A stretch of DNA of 64,000 nt from Anaerolineales bacterium. GTDB lineage: Bacteria; Chloroflexota; Anaerolineae; Anaerolineales; UBA11579. Each line of letters starts with the position of its first letter. Position 1 is the first letter of the stretch. This document shows positions 15,357-20,323 of the stretch, piece after piece. The notes under the pieces were generated by a model. That model saw nothing but the letters and a program-made list of their open reading frames with translations, ran no database searches and was not told the origin of the DNA. The stretch lies in assembly GCA_040902205.1 (NCBI GenBank), contig JBBDXR010000028.1:7390-71389 (forward strand). Reading direction: 5' to 3'. The position numbers and the translations under genes were made by a program.

Positions 15357-16661
15357 TTACTTCACGGTGCCGTAGAAAAGTGGAAGGGGGTTGATCTTGC
15401 GCTCGTTCCATTTGTGGGCGGCCAACACGCGAGCGCGGGCGGCTTTCAGCTTGGCCTCATCGTTGGCGTGGAGCGTGAATAACCGCGCGCCCTTGGTCAC
15501 CTTATCGCCTACTTTGTGATGGACGACGATGCCGACAGCATGATCGATCGTGTCCCCTTTCTTGACGCGGCCGGCGCCCAGCTCAACGGAAGTCTCGCCG
15601 ACTTCTTTGGCATCGATGAATTTGAGGTAACCCGAGCGCGGCGCGGGGACATCTTCGATGTATTGAGCCGGCGCAAATTTTTCCGGATCGTCCACATAGC
15701 TGACATCCCCCCCCTGAGCGGCGACCAGGGCGCGGAAGCGCTGGAAGGCGCTGCCGTCCTGCAGCTTCGCCGCGGCTAGCTTGCGGGCGGCGGCCAGCGT
15801 CTTTTCCTTTTCCCCCAATACGATGAGGTGGCTGGCTACCTCCAGAGCGTGTTGGCGGAAGTCCTCAGGGCCGCCGCCGCGCAGAGTCTCGATGGCTTCC
15901 TTCACCTCGAGGGAATTCCCAACGGCATGGCCAAGCGGCTGGTTCATGTCGGACAGCAAAGCCACGGCTTTGCGGCCGGCCAGCTTGGCGATCTTCACCA
16001 TGATGCGTGCCAATGCACGCGCATCCTCCAGGTTCTTCATGAAGGCGCCGACGCCAACTTTGACGTCCAACACCATGCGCTGTGCGCCGGCGGCGATCTT
16101 CTTGCTCATGATGGAAGAGGCGATCAGCGGGAGTGACTCGACTGTTCCTGTAACGTCCCGCAAAGAATACAGCATTCCGTCCGCTGGAGCCAAGTCACCG
16201 GTTTGCCCTGTGAGCACAACACCCAACTCACGCAATTGGGATAGGAACTCTTCAGTAGTAAGGTTGGTGCGAAAGCCGGGGATAGACTCCATCTTGTCGA
16301 GAGTGCCACCGCTAAAGCCAAGACCTCGCCCGGACATCTTGCCGACATGCAGACCGCAAGCAGAAGCTATTGGCTCCACGACTAGAGTGGTCTTGTCGCC
16401 AACCCCGCCTGTGGAATGTTTGTCCAGGGCGAAATCAACCACTCCGGACAAGTCAAGCACGTCGCCAGAATTAGCCATAGCTAGACTCAAGTCTCTTGTT
16501 TCAATGTCCGACATCCCATTTATATAGACTGCCATTGCCCACGAGGCAATCTGATAATCAGGTATCCTTCCGCTTACTAAACCCCGGACAATAAACTGGA
16601 TTTCTTCTTTCGATAGGTTTTTTCCATCACGTTTTTTTACTATTAAATCTACTGCACGCAT
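15357..16661 (-). CDS. pdp: pyrimidine-nucleoside (thymidine) phosphorylase
   Basis: DKHSTGGVGDK and SGRGLG.GGTLDK motifs; length 434 aa. The 5' third of the gene is compositionally atypical (see findings). Confidence 0.95.
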   Translation of the reverse strand: MRAVDLIVKKRDGKNLSKEEIQFIVRGLVSGRIPDYQIASWAMAVYINGMSDIETRDLSLAMANSGDVLDLSGVVDFALDKHSTGGVGDKTTLVVEPIASACGLHVGKMSGRGLGFSGGTLDKMESIPGFRTNLTTEEFLSQLRELGVVLTGQTGDLAPADGMLYSLRDVTGTVESLPLIASSIMSKKIAAGAQRMVLDVKVGVGAFMKNLEDARALARIMVKIAKLAGRKAVALLSDMNQPLGHAVGNSLEVKEAIETLRGGGPEDFRQHALEVASHLIVLGEKEKTLAAARKLAAAKLQDGSAFQRFRALVAAQGGDVSYVDDPEKFAPAQYIEDVPAPRSGYLKFIDAKEVGETSVELGAGRVKKGDTIDHAVGIVVHHKVGDKVTKGARLFTLHANDEAKLKAARARVLAAHKWNERKINPLPLFYGTVK

Positions 16662-16694
16662 TCATCACCTTCGAAGTTGTTGCCTATTGTCTAG

Positions 16695-16700
16695 TATAAT
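16695..16700 (+). promoter_or_regulatory. candidate -10 box (TATAAT) for the low-GC operon
   Basis: A perfect TATAAT lies 25 nt upstream of ATG 16725, and agagagga lies just before the ATG. No convincing -35 box was seen. Confidence 0.35.
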
Positions 16701-16724
16701 GCGCCCAAGCAAAGAGAGGACAGT

Positions 16725-18125: not shown

Positions 18126-19486
18126 CTTCAAACATAATAGCAGGGAAGGATTTATCGGACTTAGTCAGGCAAACCGTTGATTCTGATTCCTCAGACGCAG
18201 AGTATGACCCGGAATTAATTTCCGGTTACTTTTATACACTTCGCGTTGGCAAAAAAGCCTACCTTGCAAGAACACCTGCCGGGCAGGAGCAAGCAATAGA
18301 AATTAAATTCACAAAGCCTCTCAGATTACAGGGGGACAGGGAAGTTGTGCTTAGAAGTTTGGAAAGCTTTAAAAAAATACCAGACGATATTTATGGCGAA
18401 TTGAGCTTAAATCCTGAATTGGCGAAAATGGGTGTAGTCCTTATTGCACCTTCAAAGTTTTACCCAGGGGTAATAGGATTTCCTCATTTTATTATTAGCA
18501 ATTTAACCTACTCAAACGTTGTGCTAAACCTCGGCGACAAGCTTGTTGACGTTCAATTTTTTCGACTAAAGGAAAAAATCACTGAAATATCATCGCCCTT
18601 CTGGAGCTTTGGAAGGCCAAATTTGCCTGTTCTGACTAAACCGGAGAAAATGGTGGATTCCTTTCCGGCTGTTGAGGCGAGTGTAAATCTACTCAGACAA
18701 GAACACGATGAGCTTAAGCGTGTTGTAACGGAAATTTCAAGTTACGGGTACTACAAACCTCATGGTACACCGCCCGATTCTACGTACACAAAAGATCCGA
18801 TCGTTAATCTAAAAAGCAATCCTTTGTTTTCCCAAAATTCAAGTCGCCCTACCAAAGTTGTTTCAGGCACGACGACAACGATTGATACAGTACCAGCTTT
18901 AACACTGTCAAAAAATGTCCTCGTTGAAGTCATCCCCTCAAACTTCCTAACAAAAAACTGCATACAGTTGCTTACCAAGGCTATTCCATCTGGGTACAAT
19001 GGAAACATCACTCTCCAGCTATACAACTATGGCTTAGAGGACTTGAATATCCCAGATGATGAAATTCTTGCATTTGCTAAACTAACCCAGATGGGCCTAA
19101 TAGCATTTTCGGAAGGTGAGGAGGTTTTAAGAGACAATCAAGATTTACCTGATTCAAAAGGAGTTCACTATTCAACCGCCGAGGTGCGGAAAATGCTCGG
19201 GGGCTTTGAAGACAAATTAAAGGATTATGATGCAAAGATAAACGCTGATCGGAGAATCATCGACCTATTCTTTATGGCCGCAATCGCCGGAATAATCGCA
19301 GGTGTTTTTATAACGTTAATCACTTCTCTTACAAGGACTGAAAATACAATTCAAGGCATCGTAAACCCCAAAAATATCGCGATTTTCCTTGGAGTAACTA
19401 TTCTAGTTTCACTCGCTGTAATGGAGTTCTGGAAACTTAGAAGCAAGAAGGAACATAATGATCAACCAAATGAAAACTCTCACTGA
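18122..19486 (+). CDS. membrane-anchored protein with tandem dCTP-deaminase/dUTPase-like beta-barrel domains
   Basis: Domain 1 (aa 1-150): IIAGKDLSDLV, YFYTLRVGKK, ...YPGVIGFPHFIISNLTYSNVVLNLGDKLVDVQFFRL follows the Dcd pattern. Domain 2 (aa ~255-325): IPSGYNGNITLQLYNYGLEDLNIPDDEILAFAKL. Two TM helices lie at aa 379-403 and 418-437. ATGA overlap with gene B. Confidence 0.65.
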   Translation: MTSNIIAGKDLSDLVRQTVDSDSSDAEYDPELISGYFYTLRVGKKAYLARTPAGQEQAIEIKFTKPLRLQGDREVVLRSLESFKKIPDDIYGELSLNPELAKMGVVLIAPSKFYPGVIGFPHFIISNLTYSNVVLNLGDKLVDVQFFRLKEKITEISSPFWSFGRPNLPVLTKPEKMVDSFPAVEASVNLLRQEHDELKRVVTEISSYGYYKPHGTPPDSTYTKDPIVNLKSNPLFSQNSSRPTKVVSGTTTTIDTVPALTLSKNVLVEVIPSNFLTKNCIQLLTKAIPSGYNGNITLQLYNYGLEDLNIPDDEILAFAKLTQMGLIAFSEGEEVLRDNQDLPDSKGVHYSTAEVRKMLGGFEDKLKDYDAKINADRRIIDLFFMAAIAGIIAGVFITLITSLTRTENTIQGIVNPKNIAIFLGVTILVSLAVMEFWKLRSKKEHNDQPNENSH

Positions 19487-20102
19487 ATTTATAGACAGAC
19501 ACTGGACAGAACTGGCAACCGGTCCTCTTGCAAGACCGAATGTGCCCAGTTTATTGGACTCAATCCAAGAGATTGTTACAGAAACTATAAATACAAACCA
19601 GACGTTAACGTATGAGTCAATTGTCTCTTGTTATTTAAGCTTAAACGGTTTTGAATTAATCCAGCGCAAGCGATCTGAAAGTTTTATCCTTTCATTTCGA
19701 TGTTATTTGCCTCTTGAAATCGCAATTGAGGGTTTGAGTTTTTTTGATAATATTGACTATAGAGAGCTCCGAAACATCGTGAATGAAAGTTCGTTTGCTC
19801 TTGCAATTTGTTTCGAAAACTCTAATCGCGAGTCTCATACACAAGGAAACAAAGGGATTAATTTTTTGGCTGAAAGATTTATTTCAAGGAAAGAAGTCGA
19901 GAGTGTTCTTATTTCCCTCTTTCTTATAAAGACTTATCGAGGATTCGAAAGTTCATTAAAAAGAGATAGCGATCTTGATCATTATTTCCTTTCTTTGATA
20001 AATTCGCGATTCTCCATTTCATTGGCCTCTCTTTCTACGCTAGAGTCAAAATGGAATAAACTCCGAGAAGGGTCCTCTCAAGAAGTAGATAAGCTCAAGT
20101 AG
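19458..20102 (+). CDS. hypothetical protein, fourth gene of the low-GC operon
   Basis: It overlaps the 3' end of the upstream gene (29 nt, or 17 nt if the start is ATG 19470). Low GC. No motif recognised. Confidence 0.6.
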   Translation: MINQMKTLTEFIDRHWTELATGPLARPNVPSLLDSIQEIVTETINTNQTLTYESIVSCYLSLNGFELIQRKRSESFILSFRCYLPLEIAIEGLSFFDNIDYRELRNIVNESSFALAICFENSNRESHTQGNKGINFLAERFISRKEVESVLISLFLIKTYRGFESSLKRDSDLDHYFLSLINSRFSISLASLSTLESKWNKLREGSSQEVDKLK

Positions 20103-20323
20103 TTCTCTCTGATCGGCAGATATCGGGGGAAAGAGCCTGGGCTTTCGCGTTTTTTGATGATGATATCGACAGCGCGCATAGGGCTTGGCTTAAATTATAA
20201 TCGAAGCGCTCATTTGTCATACAATTAACCGTAGCTTGTTAAATGGCTTGACAAAGCCTGAACCCCGCCAATAGACTGGCTTACCTGCAAGATTGTTAGG
20301 AATGGAGATCTGACCGGCTAGCA

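Follow-up and report, generated by a model that had tools for sequence, protein, structure and literature searches.

The 64-kb window analysed here, a stretch of 64,000 nucleotides from an Anaerolineales genome (Chloroflexota), contains at 16725–20102 a compact cassette of four genes, which we call g1 to g4. Two of the products resemble thymidylate kinase (Tmk), the third joins two barrels of the dCTP deaminase (Dcd)/dUTPase fold to a membrane-spanning tail, and the fourth belongs to an unnamed family. This raises the question as to what these proteins do together when the catalytic motifs of the first three are degenerate: do they serve pyrimidine metabolism, or have enzyme folds of that metabolism been turned to defence? 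The cassette is a member of a rare, horizontally mobile and undescribed gene system, found mostly in Chloroflexota. We tentatively favour the reading that it is a conflict module that senses pyrimidine (deoxy)nucleotides and acts through a membrane effector, probably an anti-phage module of the abortive-infection type. The architecture, the loss of catalytic residues, the conservation of the operon, its mobility and, in some relatives, a linkage to STAND NTPase genes are firmly established.

The cassette and its relatives

The four genes and the parts of g3 are laid out as follows (pLDDT, predicted local distance difference test).

16725–17465, plus strand: g1, 246 amino acids, from the list of open reading frames
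17469–18125, plus strand: g2, 218 amino acids, with a possible alternative ATG start at 17484
18122–19486, plus strand: g3, 454 amino acids, from the list of open reading frames
18155–18598, plus strand: barrel 1 of g3 (residues 12–159), a Dcd-like beta-barrel, pLDDT 72–89
18821–19150, plus strand: barrel 2 of g3 (residues 234–343), more divergent, matching the barrel hidden Markov model at 4e-6, pLDDT 65–80
19175–19435, plus strand: stalk helix (residues 352–378) and two transmembrane helices (residues 379–402 and 417–438) of g3, from hydropathy and the model
19458–20102, plus strand: g4, 214 amino acids, with an alternative start at 19470

All four reading frames are intact and co-directional, and their starts and stops abut or overlap: g1 and g2 are 3 nt apart, g2 and g3 are joined by an ATGA overlap, and the g3–g4 overlap is 29 nt long, or 17 nt if translation of g4 begins at its second ATG (19470). 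A first-pass annotation, made from the letters alone, had described four co-directional genes with these coordinates, spacings and overlaps, and the open reading frame list and a reading of the junctions bear it out. Its fold assignments, a Tmk-like pair and two Dcd/dUTPase-like barrels, are likewise upheld by profile matches, PDB alignments and Foldseek, and profile searches do not place the proteins in unrelated families.

When 1.84 billion representative proteins were searched exhaustively with HMMER, only 24 relatives of g3 came up. About 10 of these are full-length, two-barrel forms with 21–30% identity; in the remainder, which are shorter, a single barrel is joined to the same helix and transmembrane tail. 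A word-indexed homologue search with g3 gave the self-match only, a single-protein genome scan gave nothing, a scan of viral contigs for g3 relatives gave none, and a metagenome scan with one family alignment (A5) recovered just duplicates of known members; alignments A1 and A4 were too divergent for pattern scans. The contigs of the g3 relatives were combined with nine genome loci, mostly from Chloroflexota with one from Acidobacteriaceae and one from Acidimicrobiia, and dereplicated to 19 independent loci (L numbers below).

In all 19 loci, the g3-like gene lies directly downstream of one to three co-directional Tmk-like genes. The clade of the window is more uniform still: in 7 of 7 cases a g1-type gene, a g2-type gene and g3 are followed, wherever the contig continues, by a gene for about 200–217 amino acids, and this four-gene order is held among relatives that share just 20–30% identity. 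The cassette thus recurs in other genomes, which the first-pass annotation had singled out as a point to check. It had also asked about phages, and here the phage and viral homologues are only distant single-barrel Dcd/dUTPases or herpesvirus tandem dUTPases, none of them membrane-anchored. One of the relatives (L021, 1900–4055) has a gene for a 258-residue single-barrel g3-like protein followed by one for a 446-residue two-barrel form, cut by the contig end, and therefore carries two paralogous effectors in one operon.

Kinase-like, dUTPase-like and fourth proteins

The first two proteins differ in how closely they resemble thymidylate kinase. g1 matches PF02223 (Thymidylate_kin) at 4.6e-11 (43.2 bits; cut-off 27) and reaches 45.1 bits with TIGR00041, the curated dTMP kinase family, below its cut-off of 83.25, which g2 exceeds with 95.6 bits. 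Aligned to Tmks of the PDB, g1 has no P-loop, with FEYADGGNAS where Tmk has EGxxGxGKT; CDRYNLATFAYQ is retained, and the LID region contains an insertion. g1 is a probable pseudo-kinase or nucleotide-binding subunit. In g2, aligned to the Tmk 3hjn, Walker A reads GIDGSGTSTQ, with Thr in place of Lys, DRY is replaced by GRL and REP by QAP, and the stretch of the DR and base-binding motifs is SGRLHLSFLAYQ, in which the Asp is lost and the Arg and AYQ are kept.

Both patterns extend across the family. Orthologues of the g1 type (L002, L005, L006, L009, L021, L025, L026 and L029) everywhere lack the P-loop, yet retain DRY...AYQ. Of the 19 g2-type genes, 18 have Thr, Ser or Leu at the position of the Walker A lysine, and the gene just upstream of g3 carries G-x-D-G-[AS]-G-[TSL]-T-T-Q in 18 of the 19 loci. 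The sole g2-type gene with the lysine (GLDGSGKTTQ) lies at 2001–2678 of L026, in a cassette that is divergent to pdp. The thymine-binding AYQ motif is present in all Tmk-like proteins of the motif table. Up to three divergent Tmk-like paralogues occur per locus, and canonical GSGKTS Tmks are encoded near the cassettes of L013 and L017.

The N-terminal half of g3 matches DCD (PF22769) at 8e-6 and 26.4 bits, just below the cut-off of 27; scores are 34.6 bits with TIGR02274 (Dcd; cut-off 92.8) and 15.5 bits with the trimeric dUTPase profiles TIGR00576/PF00692 (cut-off 102.55; dut E = 0.011), and residues 240–330 weakly match dUTPases (0.007–0.02). An AlphaFold2 model built on an alignment of ten family members (pLDDT 65) has two beta-barrels, an inter-barrel helix and a long helix that leads into a helical hairpin, with one continuous helix at 352–408 and a second at 416–446. 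Foldseek matches this model to Dcd/dUTPases at 1e-9 to 1e-11, the best overall match being 2r9q, a soluble Agrobacterium protein with two Dcd-like barrels, while barrel 1 has a TM-score of about 0.8 to 8y1w, 2qlp and 2yzj (0.75–0.84 normalised to target).

The fold is retained in g3, and the catalytic residues are not. In the numbering of E. coli Dcd, and with the result cross-checked against PDB alignments, barrel 1 lacks Ser111/Arg115 (NPELAK), the Asp of DPG (YPG) and Glu138 (Ile). The motif III Asp position is occupied by Tyr in barrel 1 and by Pro/Ser in barrel 2, which carries the clade motif PSGYNGNITLQLYNYG. Across the family the Dcd catalytic Glu is found in none of the 34 aligned barrels. 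Dcd-type deaminase activity was considered for g3 and rejected, as the catalytic motifs are missing; the dCTP deamination or depletion by g3 that had been entertained at the outset is not supported. In the window clade the Arg-Ser and Asp motifs are gone and new ones are conserved, e.g. PGYxGFxWCxLHNYG. In contrast, the short-form clade and the clade of P0005, P0006 and P0010 keep the Arg-Ser and IDPGY motifs of archaeal dUTPases; the short-form barrels retain ASYDxRxG, LSLRS and IDPGYxG, and their matches to Thermococcus/Pyrococcus dUTPases reach 5e-29. Some members of the wider family may thus be active enzymes.

The two C-terminal transmembrane helices noted in the first-pass annotation are present in both the family alignment and the model. 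Residues F384, A386, A389 and G390 of the first of them are invariant across the family and a conserved helix precedes them; a hairpin that served only as an anchor would hardly require such conservation. From the basic tail, a cytoplasmic position is predicted for the barrels. A resemblance to the two-transmembrane SLATT domain (NF033634) was also followed up and set aside: g3 scores 17.7 bits (E = 0.0026) against a cut-off of 41, and none of nine other members matches.

The product of g4, a soluble protein of about 210 amino acids, has no match in Pfam, NCBIfam, PHROGs, PADLOC or the PDB. It had been called an orphan, a label that no longer applies, as profile-confirmed homologues occur in at least nine other loci (L002–5, L008/P0027, L010, L012, L016/P0025, L025 and L029). 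The g4-like gene is inverted but adjacent in L029, and it closes a longer operon in L010/L012.

The motif degeneracy that the first-pass annotation had noticed is thus evident from the alignments and motif tables of g1, g2 and g3. With 18 of 19 g2-type genes lacking the Walker A lysine, the Dcd Glu absent throughout and clade motifs conserved all the same, the losses are systematic and not a matter of decay. To judge from these patterns, the cassette proteins appear to be under selection for something other than the ancestral catalysis.

Composition and genomic surroundings

The features that border the cassette in the window are the following.

16662–16724, plus strand: divergent intergenic region between pdp and g1, a putative promoter region, with TATAAT at 16695–16700 and a GAGG ribosome-binding site at 16716–19
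20132–20155, plus strand: weak terminator-like hairpin (AAGAGCC..GGCUUU) followed by six U, with a fold no better than that of shuffled sequences (z = 0.83)
15357–16661, minus strand: pdp (pyrimidine-nucleoside phosphorylase, from Pfam families), the divergent neighbour, outside the cassette

The GAGG Shine-Dalgarno sequence is 5 nt ahead of the g1 ATG. The TATAAT box proposed as a promoter element is present, but promoter-like sites in a promoter scan do not exceed those of shuffled sequence and the box is not listed with a -35 partner; by itself it is therefore no evidence for a promoter. The hairpin at 20132–20155 is a likely, if only suggestive, end of the operon.

The cassette is foreign by composition. 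The islet 16662–20323 has 40.5% G+C, compared with 61% and 59% in its flanks and 59% in the whole window, and the contrast reported earlier from hand counts is reproduced (33.3% in 17161–17220 vs. 68.3% in 15841–15900). G+C at third codon positions (GC3) is 0.34–0.39 in the cassette genes and 0.75–0.79 in neighbouring genes. Only two other stretches of the window fall below 48% G+C, and the G+C of the cassette is far outside chance for this window. This agrees with the horizontal acquisition suggested from the start. The islet borders show no att-like flanking repeats, and the window has no tRNA and no integrase. An identical copy of the cassette is present in an independent assembly. Among the relatives, the cassette is likewise an islet of lower G+C than its flanks in L002, L005, L010 and L013–L017, and its gene content varies at a conserved position.

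One of the two other low-G+C stretches, at 58984–60959 (about 42–45%), encodes a D12-class N6-adenine DNA methyltransferase (1.3e-23) and a SacI-like restriction endonuclease (6e-10), and is followed by an AAA_25-like reading frame at 61097–62107. It is a probable type II restriction-modification system; low-G+C islets in this genome thus do carry defence cargo. The other (about 45%; 32001–33269, minus strand) holds a reading frame for 422 amino acids without a Pfam match, flanked by a GGDEF-type gene and housekeeping genes.

The genes in the company of the cassette give signals of two kinds, some for metabolism and some for conflict. The adjacency to pdp, already noted in the first-pass annotation, recurs in L002 and in L026, where the arrangement is divergent as in the window, and is not incidental. 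Other salvage genes are found next to the cassette as well: tdk in L005, ATP-cone/uridine-kinase-like genes in L010 and L029, and an adenosine deaminase gene in L010. Further nucleotide-gene neighbours are canonical tmk (L013 and L017), gmk (L009), ndk (L002) and a tmk-holB slot (L015). This recurrent adjacency to pdp and salvage genes keeps a metabolic role alive.

Some of it may have a different origin. The low-G+C island of L013 (8776–10165) has a canonical tmk of its own (39% G+C) as its last gene, with the host tmk (50%) immediately after it, and in L017 (5339–5524; 15924–16505) a 10-kb low-G+C island lies between a 61-residue tmk fragment and a full tmk. These arrangements suggest that both islands integrated by recombination through tmk. 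In the window, codons 1–100 of pdp (16362–16661) have a GC3 of 0.34–0.52 and the remainder of the gene 0.70–0.80, and it looks as if the foreign tract ends about 300 nt inside the 5' end of pdp; in a chimera test against the pdp of L002, nucleotide identity is not raised in that part. With the tmk pieces in L013 and L017 and the low-G+C 5' end of pdp, the adjacency is explicable by recombination, and we infer that part of it reflects transfer through a conserved neighbour, not functional coupling.

Other neighbours are of the conflict-system kind. In L010/L012 and L017, genes for AAA_16/KAP-like NTPases and for a NACHT-FGE-sulfatase protein of 950 amino acids belong to the same tightly packed operon as the cassette, and in L009 a gene for Mrr lies 3 kb from the cassette. 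The neighbourhood of defence genes was judged on the 19 loci, too few for statistics. STAND NTPases, FGS domains, inactive enzyme paralogues and two-transmembrane pore effectors recur in conflict systems of multicellular bacteria (PMC7159879), and dUTPase and nucleotide-kinase domains figure among the predicted, unvalidated defence domains of a recent machine-learning survey (PMC13092281).

Two further arrangements concern mobility and partner choice. In L005 (4659–7833) the cassette adjoins genes for a thymidine kinase, a DUF2958 protein and a Replic_Relax protein, suggesting that it is carried on a plasmid or integrative element. On two alphaproteobacterial plasmids (L027, 5542–6693; L028, 5453–6765) a related protein with a single barrel, helix and transmembrane tail is encoded with a small all-alpha partner that carries RLKHxxLHFAKY and takes the place of a Tmk-like protein. 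Neither partner has a Pfam match, and among the neighbours are genes for uracil-DNA glycosylase, an HTH-ImmA/IrrE protein, a DUF1643 protein and the ribonucleotide reductase beta subunit. The pairing suggests a modular exchange of partners.

Elsewhere in the window, the gene for a 1076-residue MalT/BTAD-type regulator near the cassette has host composition and is not conserved with it; synteny by way of this regulator and a TPR protein of L002 was considered and rejected, as the two are not homologous. Downstream of it, at 23769–23921, a 42-nt tandem repeat (3.7 copies, 79% matches) lies in intergenic or short-reading-frame sequence and reads as repeated PPQGW..EGPVP and CGGG.GTGPSF peptides in two frames. 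A 48-nt tandem repeat (3.3 copies; 13671–13829, minus strand) at the 3' end of rpsP gives ribosomal protein S16, 182 amino acids in total, an Ala/Pro/Lys/Glu-rich repetitive C-terminal extension.

Possible functions and known systems

How might a nucleotide-sensing conflict module of this kind work? g1 and g2 would no longer be dTMP kinases, being without efficient phosphotransfer; their preserved AYQ base-binding motif would nonetheless let them bind thymidylate-like ligands. They may form a heterodimer, as Tmk forms homodimers. The barrels of g3 would trimerise like every Dcd/dUTPase, so that three stalk helices and six transmembrane helices would be brought together. The trigger could be a perturbation of pyrimidine deoxynucleotides upon infection, such as a surge of deoxynucleoside monophosphates (dNMPs) from host DNA breakdown, dUTP, or modified dNMPs or deoxynucleoside triphosphates (dNTPs); alternatively, the pseudo-enzymes might be bound by a phage protein directed against Tmk or dUTPase. 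The signal would then pass via the stalk to the membrane hairpin, and the membrane would be breached or depolarised, with g4 as a putative regulator or immunity partner of the effector.

In favour of such a module we count the conserved operon, the systematic motif losses, the invariant residues of the hairpin, the low-G+C islets, the STAND/NACHT-FGS genes of L010/L012 and L017, the exchange of partners on the plasmids, the matches of the Tmk-like proteins to PDC-M51B and VakA, and the restriction-modification islet of the window. Several observations weigh against it. The composition of the cassette is close to that of its flanks in L009, L019, L021 and L029, and several Chloroflexota cassettes occupy the tmk slot after a conserved R3H-ATPase gene (four loci); flank-like composition in that slot could point to a resident metabolic role. 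Most of the genes next to the cassette serve housekeeping or nucleoside salvage and are not known defence genes, and the STAND linkage is limited to two, possibly related, lineages. From its motifs, the short-form clade may be a real dUTPase of the active archaeal type, the SLATT similarity is a single sub-threshold match, and the window copy, as the most divergent member of the family, could be decaying. The cassette thus has several hallmarks of immunity, plus an unexplained tie to pyrimidine salvage.

That tie is the core of the main rival, which we consider unlikely but serious: an accessory module of pyrimidine salvage and dNTP homeostasis, in which a membrane-tethered nucleotide-binding complex would regulate, channel or buffer thymidylate metabolism together with pdp, tdk, tmk, udk and ndk. 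Adjacency to nucleoside and nucleotide genes is far too frequent for chance, and the dUTPase motifs of the short-form barrels with their archaeal matches, the AYQ of every Tmk-like protein and the native-like composition of four loci all fit such a role. The loss of the Walker A lysine from 18 of 19 g2-type proteins, of the P-loop from g1-type proteins and of the barrel motifs from the window clade does not, nor does the coexistence of canonical Tmks in the same loci. A low-G+C islet with variable gene content and STAND/NACHT-FGS genes within the operon are hard to explain in this way, and recombination through tmk and pdp could account for adjacency to these two genes. A rather improbable alternative keeps the effector step of the favoured module and changes the trigger: the pseudo-Tmk and pseudo-dUTPase would mimic host enzymes as guards or decoys, and binding of a phage protein, not of a small nucleotide, would open the membrane effector. 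STAND-linked conflict systems are noted for inactive versions of enzymes whose active paralogues are present in the same cell, and a decoy role has been proposed for them (PMC7159879). Canonical tmk does lie beside the pseudo-copies in L013 and L017, there are up to three divergent Tmk-like paralogues per locus, and NACHT-FGS proteins, typical sensors of protein patterns, are encoded in the same operon. The Stl repressors of staphylococcal islands take phage dUTPases as protein signals. Against decoys stand the conserved ligand-contact motifs (AYQ, DRY in g1, the GTTTQ P-loop), which argue for binding of a small molecule rather than surface mimicry. A broader form of the idea, which we regard as comparably doubtful, is that dead Tmk and dUTPase copies might serve as baits for phage factors or abnormal pyrimidine nucleotides, wired via a trimeric stalk to a six-helix pore, coupled in some lineages to NACHT-type NTPases, and spreading by recombination through tmk and pdp, the genes being mimicked.

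Two further explanations are very unlikely. Active kinases and an active dCTP deaminase/dUTPase could drain the dNTP pool, as in the defensive dCTP deaminase/AvcD and dGTPase systems. Defence by nucleotide depletion is well established, the known dCTP deaminase does not work without its kinase-like domain, and short-form relatives may be active dUTPases. Depletion would leave the conserved membrane hairpin unexplained, however, and it sits badly with the absence of the Dcd Glu from the family, of Arg-Ser and Asp from the window barrels and of the Walker A lysine from both kinase-like proteins. The first-pass annotation had seen in the cassette the two folds of the defensive dCTP deaminase as separate genes. 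That enzyme is a single soluble protein of 576 amino acids with a zinc-dependent cytidine-deaminase domain (Cys ligands) and an N-terminal kinase domain (10.1101/2021.04.26.441389); its zinc fold is unrelated to the Dcd/dUTPase barrels of g3, and the analogy therefore fails. Hardly more plausible is that the cassette is what remains of a transferred nucleotide-metabolism operon, now decaying and without a present function in this genome. g2 and g3 of the window are the most degenerate of their families (GRL and QAP in g2, only 4e-6 for barrel 2), which fits decay; intact reading frames with their junctions kept, the same gene order among relatives at 20–30% identity and the identical copy in an independent assembly do not.

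If the cassette is a defence system, as we tentatively favour, it would represent a new sensor-effector design, a dUTPase-fold head on a membrane hairpin under lysine-less thymidylate-kinase paralogues, and would link immunity to the thymidylate branch, which many phages rewire. Should the bait reading hold, metabolic-enzyme decoys would be a new sensing logic, and the dUTPase-fold head on a transmembrane hairpin a new effector architecture. Pyrimidine salvage, on the other hand, would make it an unrecognised, mobile and membrane-tethered layer of dNTP homeostasis. A further biochemical puzzle is the conserved Lys-to-Thr P-loop, which might bind without transferring phosphate or might carry out a different chemistry. 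The system comes from Chloroflexota and other poorly cultured lineages that defence catalogues barely cover, and with its components, motifs, family members and boundaries now defined it is testable either way.

As the first-pass annotation had supposed, the cassette matches no named defence system: g3 and g4 match no PADLOC model, and PADLOC matches only the kinase-like genes. Full-text literature searches found no description of this gene combination, of the PADLOC candidate PDC-M51, or of 8y1w/9ln0. The PDC-M51B profile matches all Tmk-like proteins (g1 at 1e-6, g2 at 2.6e-11, the best at 2.4e-19), and no other PADLOC profile, further M51 components included, matches g3, g4 or the STAND genes. 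The VakA profile matches g2 at 3e-6, and g2 and its orthologues at 3e-6 to 3e-8. VakA, whose animal parallel is the CMPK2-viperin pair, is like g2 a protein of the thymidylate-kinase family and sits in an immune operon. A radical-SAM viperin gene is absent from the window operon and from every related locus, and with the Walker A lysine missing a supply of nucleoside triphosphate substrate is unlikely. NACHT/STAND immune proteins with FGE-sulfatase (FGS) sensors are encoded inside the cassette operon in L010/L012 and L017, and not in the window cassette.

The defensive dCTP deaminase shares with the cassette a focus on the pyrimidine deoxynucleotide pool and the pairing of a P-loop kinase-like module with a pyrimidine-nucleotide-binding module. 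It differs in having a zinc fold fused to the kinase, whereas the Dcd/dUTPase beta-barrel of the cassette is separate, apparently non-catalytic and membrane-anchored. Among solved structures, the closest relatives in sequence to the family's barrels are the archaeal-type dUTPases 8y1w (Thermococcus pacificus) and 9ln0 (P45), at 5e-29; they share the fold, with a TM-score of about 0.8. Like the family, these two and 2r9q lack the Dcd Glu, and 2r9q also has two barrels per chain; unlike it, they are soluble, have no stalk or transmembrane hairpin, and keep the Arg-Ser and Asp motifs that the window barrels have lost. Nucleotide-gated two-transmembrane effectors are known from signalling defences, as in Cap15 of CBASS (cyclic-oligonucleotide-based anti-phage signalling systems) and the transmembrane effectors of Pycsar. 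SLATT is described as a nucleotide-responsive pore-former (PMC7159879). Cap15, Pycsar and SLATT resemble the proposed g3 in combining a nucleotide-binding domain with a membrane-damaging two-helix hairpin; in contrast to these systems, the cassette operon has no cyclase or signal synthase, its putative sensor is dUTPase-like, and its transmembrane hairpin is C-terminal, behind a stalk.

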